IMG/VR virus record: IMGVR_UViG_3300037420_000470
Span: 1-64,000 of that record
Strand: one strand, 5' to 3'
Length of the DNA stretch: 64,000 nucleotides
From: a virus
Lineage: Duplodnaviria > Caudoviricetes
In this document: positions 8,053 to 34,287 of the stretch, piece by piece
Position numbering within the stretch: position 1 is the stretch's first letter
Layout of the letters: each line of letters begins with the position of its first letter
Program-made: the position numbers and the translations under genes
Notes under the pieces: model-generated
Database searches by the model: none
What the model saw: the letters and a program-made list of their open reading frames with translations, nothing else
What the model was told of the DNA's origin: nothing

Positions 8053-8199
8053 ATGAAATTTCTTAAAAACCTATTGTTGAATATCCGAATCATTCTATCT
8101 CCTAACCAATGGATACAGATTTATCCACAAAGCAAACCTTGGGATAAGGAGTTGAATGAGTTTTGGCAAATTATTCCAAGGAGAGTAAGTGAGCAGTAA
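8053..8199 (+). CDS. Small hypothetical protein (48 aa, MKFLKNLLLNIRII...)
   Basis: Translated by hand; AAGGA RBS; fills the gap before thyX. Confidence 0.5.
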   Translation: MKFLKNLLLNIRIILSPNQWIQIYPQSKPWDKELNEFWQIIPRRVSEQ

Positions 8200-9169
8200 A
8201 GTAACAGTAATTGGTAAGCATGGAGTTAGTGCAACAATTCTAGCAGACTCCATTTCCCCGCAAGGGATTCGTCTGACAACGATGGAGATTGAATACCCAA
8301 GGATTATTCTAGCCGAGTTGAACACTCATGGGATGCTTTGTAAGAACTCTGCTAGTTCTCGTGCTATTCCCTTTGCTAAGATGGCAGAGCAGCTTAAGGG
8401 TAGACCGATTCGTTTTGGACAAGCGAATAAGGGTATGCAAGATAAAGGTGAAGATTTTGATGCTACTGTACTTAACAGTTACACACCTGAAGAGGCATGG
8501 GAAGCTGTGAAGAAAGATGCAATATTCTGGTCTAAAGCGTTCTTTAACGCAGGGTATCACAAACAAATTGGTAATCGCCTCACTGAACCGTTCCAGATGA
8601 TGAAGACTGTTATTTCAGCTACAGAGTGGAATAACTTCTTTTGGCTACGTGATCATGAAGCTGCTGATCCGTCAATAGCGGAGTTGGCAAGCTGTATGAG
8701 AGTTGCTAGGGAAGAGTCTGAGCCACAACTGTTGTTTCCTGGTGAATATCATCTTCCGTACATTCAATTTTTCCGTGATGATTCTGGTGGAGCAATGTAT
8801 GCCATCACTGATGACAATGGAAATCTTGAATGGCTTACAGCAGACCGAGCAAGGAAAGTGTCTGCTGCTCGTTGTGCTGCTGTTTCCTTTAGGAATACGG
8901 ATTACACGCTTGAAAAGAGTTTGGAAGTGTATGAGAGACTTGTAGGAGATGAACGGAAACATGCATCAGCATTCCAGCATCAAGCTACACCGATGAAGGC
9001 AAGTGATTGGGATATCGACACTGACAATCCAATAAACCATGCGATGTTCCCTTGGTCTTGGGAAGACGGCATTAGTCATGTAGACCGTGAAGGGCAGTTA
9101 TGGAGCGCACAATTCCGTGGCTGGATTATGTTTAGAAAATTGATTGCTGGTGAAAATATTTCTGGCTAA
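8189..9169 (+). CDS. thyX: Flavin-dependent thymidylate synthase, phage type
   Basis: YPRIILAELNTH...NSASSRAIP, NRLTEPF, NFFWLRDH, SAARCAAVSF, HASAFQHQA. Confidence 0.88.
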   Translation: MSSKVTVIGKHGVSATILADSISPQGIRLTTMEIEYPRIILAELNTHGMLCKNSASSRAIPFAKMAEQLKGRPIRFGQANKGMQDKGEDFDATVLNSYTPEEAWEAVKKDAIFWSKAFFNAGYHKQIGNRLTEPFQMMKTVISATEWNNFFWLRDHEAADPSIAELASCMRVAREESEPQLLFPGEYHLPYIQFFRDDSGGAMYAITDDNGNLEWLTADRARKVSAARCAAVSFRNTDYTLEKSLEVYERLVGDERKHASAFQHQATPMKASDWDIDTDNPINHAMFPWSWEDGISHVDREGQLWSAQFRGWIMFRKLIAGENISG

Positions 9170-10559: not shown

Positions 10560-12338
10560 ATGGATGTAGCTGAAAGATATGGCATAGACCTATCCTACGA
10601 GCATAAAACTCAATGCCCCCGATGTGCTAGGAATGGCAGAGACACAGCAGGAAACAACCTGCATGTGTATGGACAAGATAGTGGAGCCTTTTGTTGGAGT
10701 TGTGACTACACAATTCCTTCTAAAGCACATAGGGAAGCGATGGGATGGGATGAACAAGATTTTGAAGAGGATGAGGTAGTGACCAGGGAAAGAATAACTG
10801 ACGAACAAAACGAGCAAATCAAAAGTTATACCAGCTTCAAAGGGAAAGGCTATAGAGGTATTCGGGATGAAACTAATAAGTTTTTCGGTATCCGCTACGA
10901 GTACAGCGATGAAACTGGTGAACCAATTAAGCAATATGTACCAACAACGATTGACGGTAAATTAGCTGGCTATCGAACTAGAGTATTTCCTAAAGATTTC
11001 AGCAATCCCATTGGACAAGTTGGTAAAGAAACTGACATGATTGGAGAATTCCGATTCAAAAATCATAGTCGCACTGTCATCATCACTGGTGGTGAAACTA
11101 AGATGCTCAATACCTACCAAATGCTCAAGGATGATCTTGAGAGGCGTGGTAAAGGGGATTATGAAACTGTAGCAGTAGTGTGTTCTACGTTAGGTGAGAG
11201 TGGAGCATATAAGCAGGTACAATCACGGTATGAATTCTTCAATCAGTTCCAAAAGATTGTAATATGCATGGATGCTGATAAAGCTGGTGAAGAAGCTGCT
11301 GAGAAGATTGCTAGGGTATTGCCTAAAGGTCGTGTCTACATTATGAAGATGCGATACAAGGATGCTGATGACTTTGTGGAAGCAGGAAAAGAGAAAGAGT
11401 TTATTCAAGACTTTTGGAATGCAACAGCATACGTTCCAGCAGGGATTGTAGGTAGTGGTGAATTGCCTTCAAAGATTCGTGAAGAAGCGAACAGTGAGAA
11501 GATTTCGTTTCCTCCGTTCATGGCAAAGATTAACGAGATGACTGCTGGTGGTTTGAGTTTGGGTAAGATTTGTAATATCGGTGCTGCATCTGGAATCGGC
11601 AAGACAGTGTATGTCGATACGATAATCTACCATCTGGTTTTCAATTCTCCGCACCAAGTAGGTGTAGTATCGATGGAATTGAATGCTGGTCAGTACGGTT
11701 TGTCTATGTTGTCTAGACACATTGGCAGGAAGATTTCTAACATAGAAGATCGTCAAGAACGGCTTGAATTCTTGAACTCTGATTATGTGCGAGAGAAAGA
11801 GCAGGAACTATTCTACCGAGAAGATGGTAGTCATCGTTGGCATTTGGTTGATGATCGGGATGGCAGTATTGAAGATTTAAAATCTGTAGTTGAACAACTT
11901 GTGATTGGGTGTGGTTGTAAGGTGATTGTCCTTGATCCACTGCAGGACATATTGGACGGTCTTACGAATGAAGAACAAGCCATCTTCTTGAAGTGGCAGA
12001 AAGGGTTGATCAAATCTCACAACATCTCGTTTATTAACATCAACCACGTCCGTAAGAGTGGGGGTGGTGGGCAGCAGAACTCAAATGGTGGTATGATTTC
12101 GGAGGAAGATTTTGCTGGTTCTTCTACGATATTCAAATCAGCAGCTTTGAACATCTTATTGGTTAGAAACAAGATGGCTGAAGATCCTATTGAAAGAAAC
12201 ACCACTAGGGCATTCATCAGTAAGAATCGTGACAATGGTGTGACAGGACCAGCAGGAGAGTTCTTTTATGACAACGAAGATCATACGTTGTATGAAAAAG
12301 AAGAGTGGTTGGCAAAACAGCCGACAACTGAATTTTAA
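10560..12338 (+). CDS. Primase-helicase (Zn finger, TOPRIM, SF4 helicase)
   Basis: CPRC...CWSC Zn ribbon, MDADKAG DxD, Walker A GAASGIGKT, VIVLDPLQ Walker B, SKNRDNG. Confidence 0.95.
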   Translation: MDVAERYGIDLSYEHKTQCPRCARNGRDTAGNNLHVYGQDSGAFCWSCDYTIPSKAHREAMGWDEQDFEEDEVVTRERITDEQNEQIKSYTSFKGKGYRGIRDETNKFFGIRYEYSDETGEPIKQYVPTTIDGKLAGYRTRVFPKDFSNPIGQVGKETDMIGEFRFKNHSRTVIITGGETKMLNTYQMLKDDLERRGKGDYETVAVVCSTLGESGAYKQVQSRYEFFNQFQKIVICMDADKAGEEAAEKIARVLPKGRVYIMKMRYKDADDFVEAGKEKEFIQDFWNATAYVPAGIVGSGELPSKIREEANSEKISFPPFMAKINEMTAGGLSLGKICNIGAASGIGKTVYVDTIIYHLVFNSPHQVGVVSMELNAGQYGLSMLSRHIGRKISNIEDRQERLEFLNSDYVREKEQELFYREDGSHRWHLVDDRDGSIEDLKSVVEQLVIGCGCKVIVLDPLQDILDGLTNEEQAIFLKWQKGLIKSHNISFININHVRKSGGGGQQNSNGGMISEEDFAGSSTIFKSAALNILLVRNKMAEDPIERNTTRAFISKNRDNGVTGPAGEFFYDNEDHTLYEKEEWLAKQPTTEF

Positions 12339-12503: not shown

Positions 12504-12679
12504 CAACTAAAGTGATAATTGAATACGCAAACCATCCTGTACGAATTGGCACTTATGACCCTGACACTGGAATGCAGGTTAATCCTCCGGTTATATTAAC
12601 TGAGGGAAGATATGAAGTGTATGTTCATGCACATCATGCAGTGAATGTGGAAGAAATTCACACTGATGGTGAAGCATGA
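12500..12679 (+). CDS. Small hypothetical protein (59 aa)
   Basis: Translated by hand; ATGA overlaps at both ends. Confidence 0.6.
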   Translation: MTTKVIIEYANHPVRIGTYDPDTGMQVNPPVILTEGRYEVYVHAHHAVNVEEIHTDGEA

Positions 12680-12930
12680 CCCAACAAGAATCTTATGAAC
12701 TTATTTCAAAGAAGTTGGAACAAGCAAAGAATCTGATTAATGAAGCTGTATCTATTTCAGAGCAACATGGTGTGGTATTCACTCTCCCTTGGGGTGGTGA
12801 AGGAACAAGTGAAGCAGGATTAGGAGCTACGTATGTACCAACTACAGCAAGTGAAAAAGATAAAGAATGGAATTCCAATTGGAATAGTTGGCGTAATTAT
12901 GGTTGGATGCCATCTGCAGGTTCATGCTAA
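12676..12930 (+). CDS. Small protein with C-terminal WxxSxxxC motif, member 1
   Basis: Ends WMPSAGSC*. Confidence 0.75.
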   Translation: MTQQESYELISKKLEQAKNLINEAVSISEQHGVVFTLPWGGEGTSEAGLGATYVPTTASEKDKEWNSNWNSWRNYGWMPSAGSC

Positions 12931-12948
12931 AAATTAGCATGTTAATAA

Positions 12949-12964
12949 TTCTCATAAATGAGAA
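12949..12964. repeat. Palindrome TTCTCATWWATGAGAA, copy 2
   Basis: TTCTCATAAATGAGAA, intergenic. Confidence 0.95.
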
Positions 12965-12982
12965 ATTCTAAAGGAGAAAGAA

Positions 12983-13231
12983 GTGGTAAAGAAAACTGAA
13001 ATTGGTGGTATTAATCTGTCTGAATTTCGTCGCCAGAGAGAGGCAGTGACACAAGCAGCTTTGGCTGAAGTTGCAAGCAGAGTTGAACAGATTCAAGAAT
13101 TGCTGAAAGAGATTCAAGAGATTTCAGAGGCAACGGGAGTGTCTGTTAGTTTGTATGGATTGAAGAGTTCAATTAACGATATTGGAAGCGAGATTGACGA
13201 AGATTGGTATTCATCCTCTTACTCTTGTTGA
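12983..13231 (+). CDS. Small protein with C-terminal WxxSxxxC motif, member 2
   Basis: Ends WYSSSYSC*; AAGGAG RBS. Confidence 0.75.
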   Translation: MVKKTEIGGINLSEFRRQREAVTQAALAEVASRVEQIQELLKEIQEISEATGVSVSLYGLKSSINDIGSEIDEDWYSSSYSC

Positions 13232-13256
13232 GTAAGAGTCTGATTAAGGAGAAATA

Positions 13257-13676
13257 ATGGAAGATATAGTTATAAATGGTGTAAGCATTAATGGGTTGAA
13301 GGCTCAACGTGAAGCAATCAAACAGGGAGCAGCACAATCCATTTCTGATGGAATTGAGAATGTGAAAGTGATTGTCAATAAGATTGTCGAATCGGATGAA
13401 GAAAATCCTATAGATGTTGATGCACTTGCTGTAGAAGCTTTTGATATTCTTGATCGTGTTGACCTTGTTAGTAGCGTTTCTGGTGTTGAGTATTATTTGC
13501 CGTACAATGAACCTTACGGATATAATGACGATGATACGCTCACTACGCAACTAGAAGAATGGTCAGATGAGAGTGATGTAAATATTTACAAAGGTAAGAT
13601 TGGCAGGCTGTATGACCAATTAGGTGGGATGGAAACACAGTCTCGTTTGTGGAATTCTTCTTCGGTGCATTGTTAA
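13257..13676 (+). CDS. Acidic protein with C-terminal WxxSxxxC motif, member 3
   Basis: Ends WNSSSVHC*; N-terminus resembles member 2; AAGGAG RBS. Confidence 0.75.
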   Translation: MEDIVINGVSINGLKAQREAIKQGAAQSISDGIENVKVIVNKIVESDEENPIDVDALAVEAFDILDRVDLVSSVSGVEYYLPYNEPYGYNDDDTLTTQLEEWSDESDVNIYKGKIGRLYDQLGGMETQSRLWNSSSVHC

Positions 13677-13924
13677 TGCGTACACTATTCGCAGCACTAC
13701 TTGTAGCAACCGTGTTGTGCGGTTGCACTAAGAAAGCAGAATCAGTCAGCTATGTAAACAAAGAATTCGAAGTTGAGAAATTGTTTGAACATGATGGCTG
13801 TAAAGTGTATCGATTCTACGATGGTGGTTGGCAAAGGTATTACACCAATTGTAGCGGTTCAACACAATGGACTCAAAGTTGTGGGAAATCTTGCACTAGT
13901 CAAGAAGGTGTAACAGGAACTTAA
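13676..13924 (+). CDS. Predicted lipoprotein
   Basis: MRTLFAALLVATVLCGC lipobox; VEKLFEHDGCKVYRFYDGG; ATG overlaps upstream TAA. Confidence 0.75.
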   Translation: MRTLFAALLVATVLCGCTKKAESVSYVNKEFEVEKLFEHDGCKVYRFYDGGWQRYYTNCSGSTQWTQSCGKSCTSQEGVTGT

Positions 13925-13940
13925 TTTAAAGGAGGTAGCT

Positions 13941-14897
13941 TTGGTAGTGATTGGAAGTGCAGCTTTGGCATATCATGTAATGGGAATTAAACCAAATGAT
14001 TTAGACCTTATAGGCACGTATGAGGAAGCTGTTGAATTCCGTAAGCGATTCAAGGCTGTCTCTTTTTACCCTATCAACTCAGGTAAGTCCATCTTCATGC
14101 GGGATGCTGAAGGGAATATTTGTGAAATAGAGATTGCATGGCCTGGAAGCAGAGCAGAGAAGTTTGTTAAGTTTTTCTTTGAACATGACTTCAAACAAGA
14201 GGTTCCTGGTAATTTATACGATGCAGCATATTGGGTTGGCAGGGATTGGTATGTTCCATCGCTGGATGTTTTGTATTTGCTGAAATGCTCGCACAAATAC
14301 CTTAAAGATAGCATCCATTTCAAGAAGACGATGGATGACATTATCTACATGCGGGATACGCTAGGTTGTAAGATTCGAGATGAGCATAAAGCATTTTATG
14401 AAGAAAGGATGAAGGATACTTACACAAATAAACTGCCTAAGTTGAATGTCAGTAAGAATGAGTTCTTTGATGCAGAGGCTACAGGTGTTCGCTATGAGTA
14501 TATACACGATACTATCCATCTTGCAGTGAAACACTTGTCTAAACCGGCTTACGAGTTCTTTAAACCGGATACAAACGAAGTGTACTGCAGCAAGGAAATG
14601 TTCTTTGCTTGTGATGAATATATTCAGTTGCTATCAGGGTTAGAAGAAGCAATGGTGTTGGCGATTGAGAGAAGCCTTGTCCCGTTTCCGAACGGGAAAA
14701 CCCCGAAACAGGCGTTCGACCTAGCATTGCAAAAGCTTGCATCGTCAATTAGCTCCGGTTGGTACAGAGAATTTGTGTGGGAAAACTACGATAGGATTCA
14801 ATCGCTATACCATGATGACTACTTTGGGTGGTTCTTGGAAGGGGTTGAAAAAGGTGTTGTAAAGAAAGTAGTTGACAACAAGGAACAGAACCACTAA
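13941..14897 (+). CDS. Nucleotidyltransferase-like protein (Pol beta-type GS...DxD) with helical C-terminal domain
   Basis: VVIGSAAL...PNDLDLIG; HDTIH in C-terminal domain; AAGGAGG RBS. Confidence 0.65.
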   Translation: MVVIGSAALAYHVMGIKPNDLDLIGTYEEAVEFRKRFKAVSFYPINSGKSIFMRDAEGNICEIEIAWPGSRAEKFVKFFFEHDFKQEVPGNLYDAAYWVGRDWYVPSLDVLYLLKCSHKYLKDSIHFKKTMDDIIYMRDTLGCKIRDEHKAFYEERMKDTYTNKLPKLNVSKNEFFDAEATGVRYEYIHDTIHLAVKHLSKPAYEFFKPDTNEVYCSKEMFFACDEYIQLLSGLEEAMVLAIERSLVPFPNGKTPKQAFDLALQKLASSISSGWYREFVWENYDRIQSLYHDDYFGWFLEGVEKGVVKKVVDNKEQNH

Positions 14898-15481: not shown

Positions 15482-15841
15482 GTGACGAAAATGAATCCAG
15501 AAGTAAAAGCAAAATGGCTTCAAGCATTGCGTAGTGGAGAGTACAAACAATGTGAAGGGAAACTCAAATCACAGTACGAAGATGGTACGTGTGCTTACTG
15601 TTGCTTGGGAGTATTGTCAGACATCCATGCTAAAGAGACAGAACAAGGAGATTGGGTTGACGGTGCTATATACAGAGATAGCACAGGAGACACAGAAATG
15701 GGTGTTTTGACTAAAGGTGTTCGTGTATGGGCAGGACTGTCAAAGTCGAACCCTGACGCACGTTCTTCATCTGTGGCTGAGTTAAACGATGGTGGTGTTT
15801 CGTTCGCACATTTGGCAGATATTATTGAAGAGCAATTCTAA
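15482..15841 (+). CDS. Hypothetical phage protein (KWLQALRSGEYKQ...YCCLGV)
   Basis: 119 aa ORF, AAGGAG RBS; preceded by hairpin GAGGGC-TTCT-GCCCTC and T tract. Confidence 0.75.
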   Translation: MTKMNPEVKAKWLQALRSGEYKQCEGKLKSQYEDGTCAYCCLGVLSDIHAKETEQGDWVDGAIYRDSTGDTEMGVLTKGVRVWAGLSKSNPDARSSSVAELNDGGVSFAHLADIIEEQF

Positions 15842-16116: not shown

Positions 16117-18516
16117 ATGAGGTTAGTTTGGGATATTGAAAGTAGCGGATTGTTAGACCATACTTCAATCGACTATACTGCAAGCCCATATCAACTTCTT
16201 CCAAGCTTCAGAATTCACTGTATCGTAGCAAAGGATATTGACAGCAAGCAGAAGTACAAGTTTGTAGGGGATGAAGTGAAAACTAAGTTCCCTAGCTTGT
16301 TGGAGAAAGCCTCTGTATTGATTGCACATAACCAAATCAACTTTGACTTGCTGGCAATCAAACTTTACCTTGGCATTGATTACGAGATTGGTGAGACATG
16401 CACAGTCAGTGGCAGAGATGTAAATATCATTGATACGCTTGTTCTGTCTAAAGTGCTGAATCCCGATAGGTATGGTGGGCATAGTATTGATGCCTGGGGT
16501 GAACGTCTGAAGTTGGAAAAGATTGATTGGCGTAGTAAGGCAGTTGAGTTAGGTTTGATTGAACGTAATGCTCCAAAAGGGGCAGAGTTCTTGCAGTATC
16601 ATCCTGAAATGTTAGTGTATAACGAGCGAGATGTTGATGTTAATGAACTCGTTTATAAGGCACTCGTTGAAGAGATGGGTGATTGGGATTGGGCAGGACC
16701 ATTTACACTGGAGCAGCGAGTACAAGACATCATTACTAGGCAACAACATCGTGGTTTCAAATTCAACAAGGAGTTGGCAGAAGCTAACATACGTGATTTG
16801 GATACCAAGATGGAGGAAATACGGCAGATTGTAGAGCCGCTATTGCCACCTAAGCCAATGGGCGTAACAAAGTTAAAGCAGTACATCCCTGGTAAGGAAC
16901 AGTTTAAAAAGAACAGTGAACCTAATGCCAATATTATCAAGTGGTGTGCGAAGCATGGTGGTACTGTAGATGAAAGAGAGGATGGCTATTACACAAAACT
17001 TTATGGTAAAGAGTACAAACTTCCGCTTCCACAAGAGCCAATCCAGACTCACGAAGCTGCAACTGTTAAAGATACAACGCATATAAAAGGATGGTTGGTT
17101 GAGTTGGGGTGGAAACCAACGCAGTATAAGGAACGAGATTTAACTTGTGACAGTAAGAAGAAAAAGCTCTCACGAGAGAAGTTTGTAGAAGCTGTTGAAA
17201 GGTATGTTGAACAAACGCTGAATAGTCCGTTTTGTAAAGACCGTTGTGCAGAGTTGGATGTAAGCCCTAAGAAACTGCGAGAAAAACTGTTAAAGCACGA
17301 TTTAAAGCGACCTCTGAAGGTTTATACCAATCCGACTATCACGGTTGGAATGGAGAAAGAGATTGACCCTGCATTGCTGGAATTGGCTGATCAGTTTCCG
17401 CATGCCAAGTTGGTTTCTGAATATCTGACGTATGCGCACAGGCGAAACTCTATCCTTGGTGGTGGTGTTGATCCTGATGAGATAGATGACGATGACGAAT
17501 GGGCAGGAAAGGGGTTTTTAGCCGCTGAGAGGATTTCTTTTGATGGAAGGATACCAACACCAGCAGACACTTGCGGAGCAGCTACAAGTCGTTTTAAGCA
17601 CAGACTTTGCGCCAACATTCCAAGGGTTACAAGCCTTTATGGTCACAACATGAGGTCTATGTTTGGTGTTGATGTTGATGATGGGTTTTACCAGCTTGGC
17701 TATGACTTTGACTCACTTGAAGCTAAGATTGAGTCTCATTACGTTTATAGGTATGAGGGTGGTCCTGAGTATGGCGTATCACTGACAGCAGAGAAGCCGA
17801 ACGACTGTCACAGCGTTTTAGCTAGAAAGATTACGGGAATTCTTGGAAGGGATTTCCCTAGATCAACTGCTAAAAATGTTAAGTACGGTTGCTCATATAA
17901 TGCACAACCCGCACGAGTGGCTAAGACCGTTGGTTGTGATTTAGAGACAGGACAGATTATCTTTGATGCATTTTGGGAGCAAGCATTCCCATTAAAGCAA
18001 CTCAAAGAGAATATGCAAAAGTATTGGGAGACTAGAGGCGAGAAGAAATTCTTGCTTGGAATTGATGGTAGGAAGTTACCTATCAGAGCGAAAGGCAATG
18101 TAATCAATACAGCATTCCAATCAGCAGGGGTTATTTGTGCTAAACGAGCTATGGTGATCCATGAACAGAAATTGAAAGATGTTGGATTGTATGTGGATTT
18201 CTTCAGGGATGACTGGTGTAATAAAGAGTTTTGCCAGCAACTCATAGCGTACCACGATGAGGCACAGTTGGAGGTTCGTAAGAGCATGGTGAAGTGGAAA
18301 AAGTTTGAATCTGAAGAAGAGTGTAAAGCGTTCAAATCTGACGATGGAAAGGTTTGGAGTGATCCAGTTCACACTGACAAGGGTTGGTTCAGGGGTTACT
18401 GTAAGGCAGGAGAACTAGCCACTGAAGCAGTTAGAGAAGCAGGGCAATACTACAAATTGAATGTAGAGTTATCTGCTGGTTATATGTTGGGAACAGATTG
18501 GGCTACTTGCCACTAA
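16117..18516 (+). CDS. Family A DNA polymerase with 3'-5' exonuclease
   Basis: ExoI WDIES, ExoII AHNQINFD, ExoIII YNERDV; motif A DFDSLE, motif B RSTAKNVKYG, motif C YHDE. Confidence 0.95.
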   Translation: MRLVWDIESSGLLDHTSIDYTASPYQLLPSFRIHCIVAKDIDSKQKYKFVGDEVKTKFPSLLEKASVLIAHNQINFDLLAIKLYLGIDYEIGETCTVSGRDVNIIDTLVLSKVLNPDRYGGHSIDAWGERLKLEKIDWRSKAVELGLIERNAPKGAEFLQYHPEMLVYNERDVDVNELVYKALVEEMGDWDWAGPFTLEQRVQDIITRQQHRGFKFNKELAEANIRDLDTKMEEIRQIVEPLLPPKPMGVTKLKQYIPGKEQFKKNSEPNANIIKWCAKHGGTVDEREDGYYTKLYGKEYKLPLPQEPIQTHEAATVKDTTHIKGWLVELGWKPTQYKERDLTCDSKKKKLSREKFVEAVERYVEQTLNSPFCKDRCAELDVSPKKLREKLLKHDLKRPLKVYTNPTITVGMEKEIDPALLELADQFPHAKLVSEYLTYAHRRNSILGGGVDPDEIDDDDEWAGKGFLAAERISFDGRIPTPADTCGAATSRFKHRLCANIPRVTSLYGHNMRSMFGVDVDDGFYQLGYDFDSLEAKIESHYVYRYEGGPEYGVSLTAEKPNDCHSVLARKITGILGRDFPRSTAKNVKYGCSYNAQPARVAKTVGCDLETGQIIFDAFWEQAFPLKQLKENMQKYWETRGEKKFLLGIDGRKLPIRAKGNVINTAFQSAGVICAKRAMVIHEQKLKDVGLYVDFFRDDWCNKEFCQQLIAYHDEAQLEVRKSMVKWKKFESEEECKAFKSDDGKVWSDPVHTDKGWFRGYCKAGELATEAVREAGQYYKLNVELSAGYMLGTDWATCH

Positions 18517-31509: not shown

Positions 31510-32077
31510 TTTTGACGAGCACTTAGGACTTCCTATAATAGAAATAGACTTATCCTGTTGTGTCTACGTTGTAACATGCAATATCAATAACAAACGCTAT
31601 GTTGGAATTTCCAACGACCCTGAAAGGCGTTGGAAAGAACATACCAGAAGGGCAAACAACCCTTCTGACCCATCATACAATTTAAAGTTATATAGAGCTA
31701 TACGTAAATACGGGTGGGAGGCATTTAGCGTAGAGGAAGTATTAAGAGGAAGCAGGGAGTTTTGCGGTTTGTTGGAGGTAAGTTTTATCTCAATTTACGA
31801 CAGTTTTGAAAACGGGTACAATTCGTCGCAAGGTGGTGAAGGTACATCATACGTTGAACCTTGGAACAAAAGTACCAAAGGTGTTTGTAAACCTAATAAA
31901 ACATCCTTTGTCAAAGGTGGGAAATCATTGCGGCAAGTTCTCACGGAAGATGAAATAAAAAGGATTCTTCAGGAGTACGACGATGGAATCCCGCCTACTA
32001 AAATGACGTGGCTCCCTGTTCATTGGTCCCAAGCTTATAGGGTTATTAATAAACACAAATTGGAAAAGGTTGGATGA
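31493..32077 (+). CDS. GIY-YIG family homing endonuclease
   Basis: CVYVVTCNINNKRYVGISNDPERRWKEH; ENGYN; C-terminal HTH-like segment. Confidence 0.85.
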   Translation: MTLACDFDEHLGLPIIEIDLSCCVYVVTCNINNKRYVGISNDPERRWKEHTRRANNPSDPSYNLKLYRAIRKYGWEAFSVEEVLRGSREFCGLLEVSFISIYDSFENGYNSSQGGEGTSYVEPWNKSTKGVCKPNKTSFVKGGKSLRQVLTEDEIKRILQEYDDGIPPTKMTWLPVHWSQAYRVINKHKLEKVG

Positions 32078-32292
32078 GAATTGTAATTTATTCAAAAAAT
32101 AATTGCCCTGCATGTGAAAGGGCGAAGAGTCAGTTAGTTCTTAAAGGTGTTGAATTCTACGTACTCAACATCGACACAGATATGGATGCGATGGATTTTA
32201 TAGCTGCTCAAGGGCATAGGTCAGTTCCACAAGTCTATGCAGATGGTGTACACGTATCAGACCTTAGCACATTAACTAGCGAAATTATTTGA
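32074..32292 (+). CDS. Glutaredoxin (NrdH/NrdC-like)
   Basis: YSKNNCPAC, RSVPQVY. Confidence 0.92.
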   Translation: MRIVIYSKNNCPACERAKSQLVLKGVEFYVLNIDTDMDAMDFIAAQGHRSVPQVYADGVHVSDLSTLTSEII

Positions 32293-32326
32293 TTAATATC
32301 AAGGAAGCAGTTATAATACTGCTTCC
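32289..32326 (+). promoter_or_regulatory. sigma70-type promoter with TATAAT as the loop of a perfect 9-bp hairpin
   Basis: TTGATT(32289)-17-TATAAT(32312); GGAAGCAGT / ACTGCTTCC. Confidence 0.7.
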
Positions 32327-32344
32327 ACATTTAAAGGAGATGAA

Positions 32345-32446
32345 ATGTTGAGATTTATTTTGAGTGCTTTGATAGGGCTTGCCCTTGAGTTTATTCCATT
32401 CGGGTGGGCTATTGGTGCAGTATTATCCTATAAAGGATATATGTAA
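32345..32446 (+). CDS. Small membrane protein (33 aa)
   Basis: Hand translation MLRFILSALIGLALEFIPFGWAIGAVLSYKGYM; AAGGAG RBS. Confidence 0.55.
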   Translation: MLRFILSALIGLALEFIPFGWAIGAVLSYKGYM

Positions 32447-32650
32447 ATGAGAAATCGCTATAACGATATGAGTTTAGGGTATGCAGCATTTATACTGCTA
32501 AGTACATTCCTTGTTGTATGTTTAGGTTTGTACGGATGGGTATCGAATATTGTATCGCTATTCCATGCTACAGGGTTTAGTGGTGCAGTTGTTTTACGTA
32601 TTATTGGTGTGTTCATGGTCCCATTAGGGATTGTATTAGGGTATGTTTAA
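32447..32650 (+). CDS. Small two-TM membrane protein
   Basis: GLYGWVSNIV...LRIIGVFMVPLGIVLGY. Confidence 0.7.
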   Translation: MRNRYNDMSLGYAAFILLSTFLVVCLGLYGWVSNIVSLFHATGFSGAVVLRIIGVFMVPLGIVLGYV

Positions 32651-32659
32651 GGAGAATTT

Positions 32660-32950
32660 ATGAAGAAAATCACGATTGAAACTGGCGAAGGCAATATTAC
32701 TATTGATGCAGAACTGCTCAAAGAATACCGTCAACGAGCATTTGAGACATTGAAGGCTCAAGATGAAGCTAAACTTGAGTTCAAAGAGGAAGTAGATGCT
32801 GCAGCAGATGGTGCAGAGAGTACCACTGTAGAGAAGAAAGTGCTGGTCAAGATTCTTGGTAAGTATTTCAAAGCAGCATATAAAGACTCCACGAAAGAAG
32901 CTAAAGAACTTGGTGAAGTGTTTGCAGCACTAGATGAAGCAGTAGCGTAA
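32660..32950 (+). CDS. Small helical protein, possibly a DsbA-like dsDNA-binding protein
   Basis: 96 aa ORF, AAGGAG RBS; resemblance to T4 DsbA is by pattern only. Confidence 0.55.
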   Translation: MKKITIETGEGNITIDAELLKEYRQRAFETLKAQDEAKLEFKEEVDAAADGAESTTVEKKVLVKILGKYFKAAYKDSTKEAKELGEVFAALDEAVA

Positions 32951-32964
32951 TTGAAAGGAAATAA

Positions 32965-33180
32965 ATGAATATTCTTACAGCAATTCCTGTAGTATTTGAA
33001 GTAGTACGTTCGATTGAACAACTCCTGCCTGAAGGCAAAGGTAAAGAAAAATTTGATGCAGCATTTGCAATGTTCCAACAACTGTACAACGACATTAGTG
33101 TAGCTGTTCCAGTAGTCACTGCCCTGATCAATACGGCAGTAGCATTGTTGAATCTCAAAGGCGAATTCAAGAAGTCGTAA
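32965..33180 (+). CDS. Small amphipathic protein (EQLLPEGKGKEK), holin-associated type
   Basis: 71 aa ORF, AAGGA RBS. Confidence 0.65.
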   Translation: MNILTAIPVVFEVVRSIEQLLPEGKGKEKFDAAFAMFQQLYNDISVAVPVVTALINTAVALLNLKGEFKKS

Positions 33181-33181
33181 A

Positions 33182-33220
33182 AGCAAAAAGCCTTGACGCA
33201 ATTAAGCATCAAGGCATAAA
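33182..33220 (-). terminator. Terminator between the convergent arms
   Basis: GCCTTGA(33190)/TCAAGGC(33215) stem with a T tract on the - strand. Confidence 0.7.
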
Positions 33221-33271
33221 ATTGCCCTACCAGAAGGACAGTAACCTAGCGGTTCGTTAGAAACGTAACTT

Positions 33272-33385
33272 TTAATAATTGCAATATAGCGTAATCGTAC
33301 CTCCATCAATTTCGCCAGCCTCCAACACTAGATATAAATTGTCAGGTAGAGTATTGAAATTCTTGGAAAGGATTACGCTTTGCAT
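33272..33385 (-). CDS. Possible small protein (37 aa) after the holin
   Basis: ATG one base after the holin TGA; C-terminal part of track ORF 33272..33625. Confidence 0.3.
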   Translation of the reverse strand: MQSVILSKNFNTLPDNLYLVLEAGEIDGGTITLYCNY

Positions 33386-33386
33386 T

Positions 33387-33764
33387 TCAGCCAAAATAGA
33401 TTGATTTATTCTGATCGTCGGTTTTAGGCTCAGACTGCACAGACTTTTCTGCTGGCACTCTATCGCTGATTTCTGAATTGCTTGGGCTATCGGGCTTGTC
33501 TGCTTTCTCAGGCAATATTCCTGCTCTCTTGCTTGTGACGTTGTGAATGACAAACTGTACAAGAGCAACAATACCAAAAGCAATGCTTGTAGCTTCTTCA
33601 GTAGATAGTTGAACACCATAGCCATAATCCCCTGCCACCTTAACTAACAGCATAATAAATGGGACTAGTAAGGTAGTGGCATTACCTCTATCCTTCCAAA
33701 CCTCACTGTTAGATAGTTCACTACCCTTCCTAAACAAATTAAACAAGTCAATCAGTTTATTCAT
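33387..33764 (-). CDS. Probable holin
   Basis: Two TM segments and a charged C-tail; directly after the endolysin. Confidence 0.6.
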   Translation of the reverse strand: MNKLIDLFNLFRKGSELSNSEVWKDRGNATTLLVPFIMLLVKVAGDYGYGVQLSTEEATSIAFGIVALVQFVIHNVTSKRAGILPEKADKPDSPSNSEISDRVPAEKSVQSEPKTDDQNKSIYFG

Positions 33765-33765
33765 T

Positions 33766-34287
33766 TTAAACTCCTAATACTTTCTTAGCTGTTATATACA
33801 ATGCAGACCTATCTGCAAAACCGTTATAACCACCATTAATAATCCTTGTGATTCGCCTAAAGTCTCCTACATCAGCGAGTTCATTTAGTCCATGCACCTT
33901 CCACCACCAAGCACTCACTCTACAAGCACTTATAGGTTCTTCTAGCAATTCTGGATGCTCTACACAATCAATGTCCAAGGCAAGCATAACAGACACGTAA
34001 TTAGATCGTCCTGTAACCTGTATAAGCCCTCTTCCCTTGAACCTAGTACCATCCCCTTGCATAACGTTTCCGAGGTCTTTACGGCCCTCATACGCGCTTC
34101 CAGAGGCTATTTCCTTGACATACCTAAGCTGCGCTGACTCATGCCCTATCTGAGCTAAGAAAGCCGCTTGTCTTACCGGCGTACTGATATCGAATTCAGT
34201 CATCGCAGCGTTGATATGCGCAAGAAACAAGTCTACCCTTTTAGCCGCTAAAGGCATAATGACTAGTAATTGTTCCTTTGTGACCAT
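33766..34287 (-). CDS. Endolysin, glycoside hydrolase family 19
   Basis: AAFLAQIGHES, DGTRFKGRGLIQVTGRSNY, ITRIINGGYNG. Confidence 0.95.
   Translation of the reverse strand: MVTKEQLLVIMPLAAKRVDLFLAHINAAMTEFDISTPVRQAAFLAQIGHESAQLRYVKEIASGSAYEGRKDLGNVMQGDGTRFKGRGLIQVTGRSNYVSVMLALDIDCVEHPELLEEPISACRVSAWWWKVHGLNELADVGDFRRITRIINGGYNGFADRSALYITAKKVLGV

Follow-up and report, generated by a model that had tools for sequence, protein, structure and literature searches.

What could several diverged small proteins with the same C-terminal tail be doing directly upstream of a nucleotidyltransferase gene in a bacteriophage genome? This question is raised by a locus in the stretch of DNA considered here, namely the first 64 kb (hereafter the window) of an 87,297-base IMG/VR phage record (IMGVR_UViG_3300037420_000470) that is judged to be complete. 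Three tandem open reading frames (ORFs) of the window encode proteins ending in W-x-x-S-x-x-x-C-stop, and the gene that accompanies them encodes a protein that can be confidently predicted to be a nucleotidyltransferase (NTase) of the polymerase beta (Pol-beta) fold. Because synteny between the two is conserved in both directions across very different phages, the view that the tailed proteins and the NTase form one conserved two-part phage module is strongly supported. As for what the module does, our preference goes, tentatively and at somewhat less than even chances, to the tail being an acceptor for nucleotidylation by the adjoining NTase.

All three small proteins are encoded on the + strand. 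Protein 1 (positions 12676-12930) has 84 amino acids, an isoelectric point (pI) of 4.8 and the tail GWMPSAGSC (end WMPSAGSC); protein 2 (12983-13231) has 82 amino acids, a pI of 4.5 and the tail DWYSSSYSC (end WYSSSYSC); and protein 3 (13257-13676) has 139 amino acids, a pI of 4.1 and the tail LWNSSSVHC (end WNSSSVHC). Each has a single Cys, which is the last residue, with Trp at position -8 and Ser at -5. A preliminary description of the locus had claimed three ORFs with fixed tails, and its coordinates, lengths and tail positions have all been verified; its further claim of an N-terminal segment common to proteins 2 and 3 also holds, as the two segments align as stated and the likeness recurs in the orthologues of both proteins.

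A word-based homologue search with protein 1 returned only the query itself, so that tblastn and profile searches were required to place these proteins in a family. With tblastn, protein 1 gave weak matches in Pseudomonas phage vB_PpS_SYP and in the jumbo Erwinia phage Kaldavass, where the matching proteins end in GLWRSSSQMC, GGWVASSQTC and GRWMGSSDFC. A profile of 123 members, compared with 1.84 billion proteins, then collected 1755 cluster representatives (50% identity) at E<=1e-3. Among the best 150 of these 1755, 144 end exactly in W..S...C, four carry the motif plus one extra residue, one has a shorter tail and one is without the motif. When the 111 unique strict tails are considered, the Ser at -5 (W+3) is universal and a second Ser at -4 (W+4), a position outside the search pattern, is found in 101 (91%), while position -6 is S, P or A and position -9 is often Gly. 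A shorter variant of the tail, W-x-x-S-x-C-stop, is typical of the protein 3 orthologues, and in some members of the family the motif recurs internally, as W-x-S-S-x-C-Y-G-[DE]-D, ahead of the terminal copy. The median length of the family is 82 amino acids and the median pI 4.4, and most members have a single Cys. Since 130 of the 147 unique tailed proteins, including all three from the window, fall into one BLAST single-linkage cluster, the homology of the tailed proteins is taken to extend beyond the tail to the body. One phage can contain several orthologous subfamilies side by side, which have only the tail in common.

Each window protein represents such a subfamily. That of protein 1 is characterized by a helix, an A.E.G..F strand and a Gly-rich loop, and its closest relative (L012:9021-9239) has 46% identity. 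The protein 2 subfamily follows the pattern ...SG.TV.L...SDWNSSSYNC, with orthologues in loci L006, L008, L010-L012, L015 and L020. Protein 3 has orthologues in L008, L010-L015, L020 and L023 that are 31-43% identical over the full length, mostly with the shorter tail. The C-terminal part of phrog_899, a family of unknown function with a profile of 221 positions, is matched by protein 1 (E 3.9e-6, profile positions 144-221) and by protein 2 (E 1.1e-3, positions 137-221), and protein 3 has no match to it. A third phrog_899 match in the genome (61589-62005, minus strand, E 0.003) lies in an ORF of 269 amino acids without the tail and is taken as spurious. Scans of the small proteins against Pfam, NCBIfam and PADLOC yielded only sub-threshold noise.

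The partner gene (13941-14897, + strand, TTG start) encodes a protein of 318 amino acids that combines an N-terminal NTase domain, DUF7277, with a helical domain, DUF7275. The profile scores are 201 bits for DUF7275 and 49.8 bits for DUF7277 (cut-off 27 for both), and phrog_2141 is matched with E 2.8e-88. The protein starts with VVIGSAAL...NDLDLIG, which corresponds to the Pol-beta pattern hG[GS]...DxD, with IGS (5-6) and DLD (20-22). Across 55 homologues there is no variation at S6, D20 or D22, conservation of G5 reaches at least 90%, and the helical lobe has invariant residues of its own (K115, H118, K129, T130, R156, H189, D190, H193, E235, E236, E243, R244, W274, R276 and E277). A consensus E-x-E on strand 60-65, where the third carboxylate was sought, lies outside the invariant columns of this alignment. 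Five loci seemed to be devoid of the G-S motif, which proved to be present once the start codons were corrected. The hG[GS]...DxD motif is thus invariant or conservatively kept in every homologue examined; catalysis is therefore under selection, and the enzyme is apparently active.

The structural model is in line with this assignment. AlphaFold2 (AF2), supplied with the 55 homologues, gave a predicted local distance difference test score (pLDDT) of 91.3 and a predicted template modelling score (pTM) of 0.88. The top Foldseek matches are MenT1 (E 4e-3, probability 1.00), CCA-adding enzymes, TM1012, ANT(2'')-Ia and LnuA. An exhaustive structural comparison also places MenT1 first (Z 7.0, root-mean-square deviation 3.9 Å, 153 aligned residues spanning 1-283), followed by TglT/MenT3 (Z 6.9) and MenT4 (Z 6.5) and then by JHP933, viral poly(A) polymerase, ANT(2''), TM1012 and LnuA; the nine best VIA-align rows are all of the NTase fold, with Z scores from 7.0 to 5.4 that are middling by the calibration of the tool. 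The Pol-beta type NTase recognized in the preliminary description is thus upheld by a confident model, by its structural neighbours and by the GS...DxD motif. At E<=1, the Pfam scan returned only DUF7275 and DUF7277, with neither DUF1814/AbiEii nor RlaP; PADLOC and NCBIfam gave no match, and the NTase profile found no PDB sequence at E<=10. A reading of DUF7275 as an HD or HEPN domain, suggested by conserved H/D and R-x6-H-like strings, was dropped because the residues are not all invariant (K in the window, R in most homologues) and no fold match was obtained.

The NTase is widely distributed, with tblastn matches in 721 of 50,697 phage records; carriers include RB69, JS98, rV5-like phages, phages of Acinetobacter, Aeromonas and Pseudomonas, and jumbo phages. 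In a large protein collection, every named homologue is labelled as a hypothetical protein. Distant homologues of 250-300 amino acids (L127-L130) occur in Vibrio phage nt-1, Gordonia phage Bachita, Streptomyces phage Blueeyedbeauty and DSS3_VP1. These keep G-S...D-x-D and the DUF7275 lobe, and three of the four (not DSS3_VP1) are without profile positions ~30-91, the middle part of the NTase domain. Within 4 kb, no tailed partner accompanies any of the four, and several are located near RNA ligase, metallophosphoesterase or tRNA gene clusters.

The evidence that joins the two parts comes from gene order, examined from either side. Starting from the NTase, 80 IMG/VR loci were retrieved with an alignment of the 318-amino-acid protein and its vB_PpS_SYP and Kaldavass homologues; with the two phage loci and the window these make up 83 loci, for which six-frame ORFs of at least 30 amino acids were considered. 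The tail W..S...C terminates 128 of the 26,901 ORFs, where composition alone would predict 1.2. Without exception, these 128 share the strand of the NTase; 123 of them end 0-3 kb upstream of its start, and 63 of the 83 loci hold one to five strict copies, with most of the others having the short tail or a tail extended by a few residues. With both tail forms counted, the distance from the NTase start to the nearest member is at most 120 nt for 39 of 70 loci, and 66 of the 70 have a member no further than 1 kb away.

Starting instead from the small proteins, the NTase was found just downstream in 15 of 15 informative loci retrieved with peptide patterns, in five of six informative contigs reached from arbitrarily chosen family members, and in all three loci with family members that were retrieved by a DNA pattern for W-x-x-S-S-Q-S-C-stop (10 matches, 7 of them chance). 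The same arrangement is present in seven of seven loci from metagenome-assembled genomes (MAGs) assigned to Flavobacteriaceae, Chitinophagales, Bacteriovoracales and Saccharibacteria. The adjacency is kept in T4-like, rV5-like, T5-sized, jumbo and 87-kb phages, as well as in MAGs of several phyla. The preliminary description had regarded the tailed proteins and the NTase as one system, and had named beforehand, as refuting it, an independent occurrence of the two across genomes; what we found is synteny conserved from both starting points.

A well-known pair of phages illustrates the point. In RB69, the cassette consists of ORF136c, ORF137c, the split ORF139c/138c and the NTase ORF134c, forming one insertion between e.2 and e.3, both of them homologous to T4 genes, while T4 has neither tailed members nor the NTase; JS98 has a cassette with five members. 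The split member of RB69 (L125:4235-4541, minus strand) comprises ORF139c, of 71 amino acids and without the tail, and ORF138c, of 33 amino acids with the end WVSSPALC, and JS98 orf129 is its intact orthologue; the RB69 pair reflects either a programmed shift or a frameshift that has left a pseudogene.

The module appears to have only these two parts. A conserved third partner downstream of the NTase was considered and rejected, given that no Pfam family recurs in more than two of the 119 products of the two downstream genes at 63 non-redundant loci. Some module loci are found beside RNA-repair genes, namely Rnl1, RtcB, RlaP and polynucleotide kinase (PNK). In these metagenomic phage loci, the neighbours at L110 (4484-11506) are PTH2, HAD, RlaP and RtcB, and at L111 (6405-9590) a T4 Rnl1-type ligase gene stands directly downstream, followed by DUF7020 and an AAA_33 kinase-like gene.

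How the tail might be presented to the enzyme is suggested by the AF2 model of protein 1, built from 150 sequences (pLDDT 80, pTM 0.67). It consists of a helix (3-31) and a three-stranded sheet (35-37, 51-54 and 76-79), with W77 in the last strand and low pLDDT for the last five residues, 80-84; because of this placement, the Trp looks structural and buried, and the S-x-x-x-C tail looks flexible and exposed. A PDB fold search with this model found nothing above Z 3.5, and in the BFVD library of viral models it matched only uncharacterised phage proteins, RB69 ORF139c among them. Prediction of a complex between the NTase and protein 1 scored 0.02, against a mark of 0.32, a result that gives no verdict either for or against binding.

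Taken as a whole, the preferred reading is that the Pol-beta NTase (DUF7277/DUF7275) would be the enzyme of the module, and the small acidic proteins, diverged from one another and arrayed in numbers from one to five, its substrates. The preliminary description had already conjectured a tail serving as substrate or reactive handle, and possibly a counter-defence or decoy role. Each small protein would fold as a long N-terminal helix on a three-stranded sheet, with the Trp in the last strand and an S-S-x-x-Cys or S-x-Cys tail exposed; the tail would enter the active site, and the NTase would transfer a nucleotide, or a short nucleotide chain, onto the hydroxyl of the invariant tail Ser or, less likely, onto the Cys thiol. 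The early effector or decoy proteins of the phage, a set in the course of diversifying, would thereby share one post-translational mark. The contact between the proteins, the transfer itself, the identity of the acceptor residue and the role in biology are here inferred. We favour, first, engagement of the active site by the tail and, within that, the acceptor role, because several diverged paralogues with only the tail in common are kept in orthologous sets, because the motif can be duplicated inside one protein, because the catalytic motif is universally kept, and because Pol-beta NTases modify protein hydroxyls in neighbouring-gene pairs such as HepT-MntA. Enzymes of this fold transfer nucleoside monophosphates (NMPs) to hydroxyls, including those of protein side chains, as MntA does on a HepT Tyr and as GlnE and GlnD do, also on Tyr. 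A more specific proposal, which we consider possible and rather unlikely, is that of a dedicated phage protein-nucleotidylation system, in which a nucleotide or short oligonucleotide placed on the tail Ser (or Cys) would make the members of a fast-diversifying set of small acidic proteins resemble nucleic acids, so that they could decoy or inhibit host factors. Still more exotic would be a version in which Ser-NMP serves as a leaving group and the terminal Cys closes a thioether ring.

Several observations weigh against an acceptor role. The protein-directed Pol-beta NTases known to us modify Tyr, not Ser or Cys, and a simple model of Ser nucleotidylation leaves the invariant terminal Cys without a role. 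About five of the 83 NTase loci are without any tailed ORF, and contig L087 (2941-5219), with three members followed by PRPP (phosphoribosyl pyrophosphate) synthetase-like and NAPRTase genes (NAD salvage), is the only informative contig that has no NTase within 5 kb. MenT1, MenT3 and MenT4, to which the NTase is structurally closest, have tRNA 3' ends as their target, and the small protein encoded upstream of MenT1 does not serve this enzyme but inhibits it (PMC10435456).

These last points about the MenT enzymes lead to the main rival explanation, to which we assign a real, if minor, probability. In this case, the NTase would be a MenT/AbiEii-like enzyme acting on the 3' end of tRNA or another RNA, and the small proteins would be inhibitors or regulators whose tail sits in its active site as an antitoxin-like plug, in the way MenA1 acts on MenT1. 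The top fold neighbours speak for it, as MenT1, TglT/MenT3 and MenT4 align over about 155 residues, although their Z scores of 7.0-6.5 are only middling. So does the gene order, with its very tight spacing, because MenA1, a protein of 68 amino acids, is likewise encoded upstream of menT1 and blocks the MenT1 active site (PMC10435456). The acidic character of the small proteins and the proximity of some loci to RNA-repair genes would also fit, as would the toxicity on expression of other phage NTases, such as Gad2 of SPbetaL7 (10.1101/2023.05.01.538930) and Emajogi gp22 (10.64898/2026.09.15.751885). However, one inhibitor should suffice, and yet up to five diverged paralogues are kept in conserved orthologous sets; moreover, PDB searches by sequence profile and by fold revealed no similarity of the small proteins to MenA1, and the module is carried by strictly virulent phages, to which the addiction logic of toxin-antitoxin systems is for that reason inapplicable. 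The invariant Cys is left equally unexplained by such a plug.

It is improbable, in our estimate, that the tailed proteins are adaptors or complex subunits, which would direct the NTase to host targets through non-covalent binding of the tail, or build a hetero-oligomer with it through their long helices, with neither modification nor inhibition. Diverged bodies with a common tail would suit interchangeable specificity subunits, the tight gene spacing would suit subunits that are co-translated, and the long helix predicted at residues 3-31 could mediate oligomerization. Against this, a docking peptide has no obvious need for an invariant Ser-Ser and a terminal Cys, and a search among proteins of 278-2000 amino acids, weak as evidence, found no fused form of NTase and small protein.

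Similarly slight is the probability that the two are neighbours without direct interplay in a co-regulated early cassette, with the tailed proteins acting alone as acidic nucleic-acid mimics or as oligomers bridged by metal through the terminal Cys: phage early regions do contain conserved gene blocks, L087 has members without the NTase and the distant short homologues from nt-1, Bachita, Blueeyedbeauty and DSS3_VP1 have no tailed partner, but the adjacency survives across very different phages and MAGs in which the surrounding genes are not conserved, and the whole cassette constitutes the difference between RB69 and T4.

A full-text literature search found no paper on the module, and both of its parts are annotated only as hypothetical proteins or DUFs; the tailed proteins and the NTase have the look of a two-part phage system not described so far. 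With a tail that is invariant and looks reactive, and an associated enzyme whose fold modifies hydroxyls, the hypothesis is a sharp one, and RB69 or JS98 in E. coli would offer a cheap way of testing it. Whatever the result, a new kind of phage early function would emerge, either a protein modification not seen before or an enzyme of MenT type that phages carry together with inhibitors of it, and a function would become attached to hundreds of "hypothetical" genes in the genomes of therapeutic phages.

The genes of the module are part of an early/replication block on the + strand of the window. The upstream part of this block includes an ORF of 326 amino acids (8189-9169, + strand) that resembles, as judged by eye, the ThyX-type flavin-dependent thymidylate synthases, with an unusual motif region (…THGMLCKNSASSRAIP…). 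It is followed by a T7-type primase-helicase (10560-12338, + strand; phrog_239, E 7e-172), from which the tailed ORFs are separated by several short ORFs. At the downstream end is a family A DNA polymerase (16117-18516, + strand), whose closest relatives, at 50-59% identity, belong to Aeromonas phages of ~120 kb and Pseudomonas phages of ~88 kb. Between the NTase and the polymerase lies an ORF of 119 amino acids with a C-x-x-C-containing segment (15482-15841, + strand; phrog_18067, E 2.9e-22, unknown function). A blastn search with the 2.9-kb region found no match among phages. Strong Shine-Dalgarno sites precede tailed genes 2 and 3 as well as the NTase gene; the start of tailed gene 1 overlaps the ORF before it (ATGA), and between the genes of the module the + strand shows nothing like a terminator. 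Further along the window, at ~32000-34000, the GC skew flips from positive (before ~32 kb) to negative, coinciding with a switch of the coding strand.

Another gene separates tailed gene 3 from the NTase gene. It encodes a lipoprotein (13649-13924, + strand) and overlaps the end of tailed gene 3. The preliminary description had included it in the cluster, and the lipoprotein itself stands, with a lipobox L-C-G-C, a Pfam DUF4884 match (E 3.8e-10) and weak Cor/EexN-like matches. Its membership does not: L012 and similar close relatives have no gene at this position, with the last small gene ending ~24 nt before the NTase start, and the lipoprotein gene is an insertion specific to the window phage and outside the conserved module. 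It looks like a moron insertion, possibly with a role in superinfection exclusion.

Finally, the module can be set beside the systems that it recalls. In aminovinyl-cysteine (AviCys) and lanthionine types of ribosomally synthesized and post-translationally modified peptides (RiPPs), thioether rings form, after activation of a Ser and elimination, between this Ser position and a terminal Cys that follows three to four residues later. The tailed proteins have this spacing of Ser and terminal Cys, but they are predicted to be folded proteins of 60-150 amino acids, rather than leader-core peptides, and the short tail S-x-C misfits; furthermore, as for linked LanB, LanM, LanD or kinase-lyase genes, no Lan-type family stands among the 25 most frequent of the 31 Pfam families in the 119 downstream products. 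The type VII system HEPN-MNT (HepT-MntA), in which a Pol-beta NTase (poly)adenylylates the adjoining small protein on a conserved side-chain hydroxyl, is by analogy the best mechanistic precedent for an enzyme-substrate reading. It differs in that the small proteins of the window have neither the Rx4-6H motif nor a HEPN Pfam match and are modelled as a helix with a three-stranded sheet, not as a four-helix bundle; that the candidate acceptor is a Ser or Cys in the C-terminal tail, not a Tyr; and that the phage NTase, at ~300 amino acids, has a helical domain of its own, unlike a minimal MNT.

Among phage enzymes, RlaP (PF10127) is the RNA-ligase-associated Pol-beta NTase of phage RNA-repair loci (PMC7824862), and it resembles the NTase discussed here in being phage-encoded and in that some DUF7275 loci adjoin RNA ligase, RtcB or PNK genes. 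However, the NTase of the window has no RlaP Pfam match at E<=1, a separate RlaP gene coexists with the module in L110, and the linkage to RNA repair is occasional, whereas that to the tailed proteins is near-universal. Gad2, a phage NTase that counters Gabija by a mechanism still unknown and is toxic in some versions (10.1101/2023.05.01.538930), is likewise a phage-encoded protein with an NTase domain; compared by description only, it is set apart by its size of ~400 amino acids and by the lack of any described partner array, and no source names a homologue of the window NTase as Gad2, nor is there an NCBIfam match.

The MenT/AbiEii (DUF1814) systems, MenAT1 among them, whose Pol-beta NTase has a helical C-terminal lobe, are the best structural neighbours, at middling Z scores, and differ in that the phage NTase has no DUF1814 Pfam match and no PDB sequence match. 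A comparison of the small-protein profile with PDB sequences gave only spurious helix matches, MenA1 not being among them. The module belongs to virulent phages, not to chromosomal toxin-antitoxin loci. Like MenAT1, it has a small protein encoded immediately upstream of the NTase gene; unlike MenAT1, it provides one NTase with one to five partner paralogues that carry an invariant W-x-x-S-S-x-x-C terminus.

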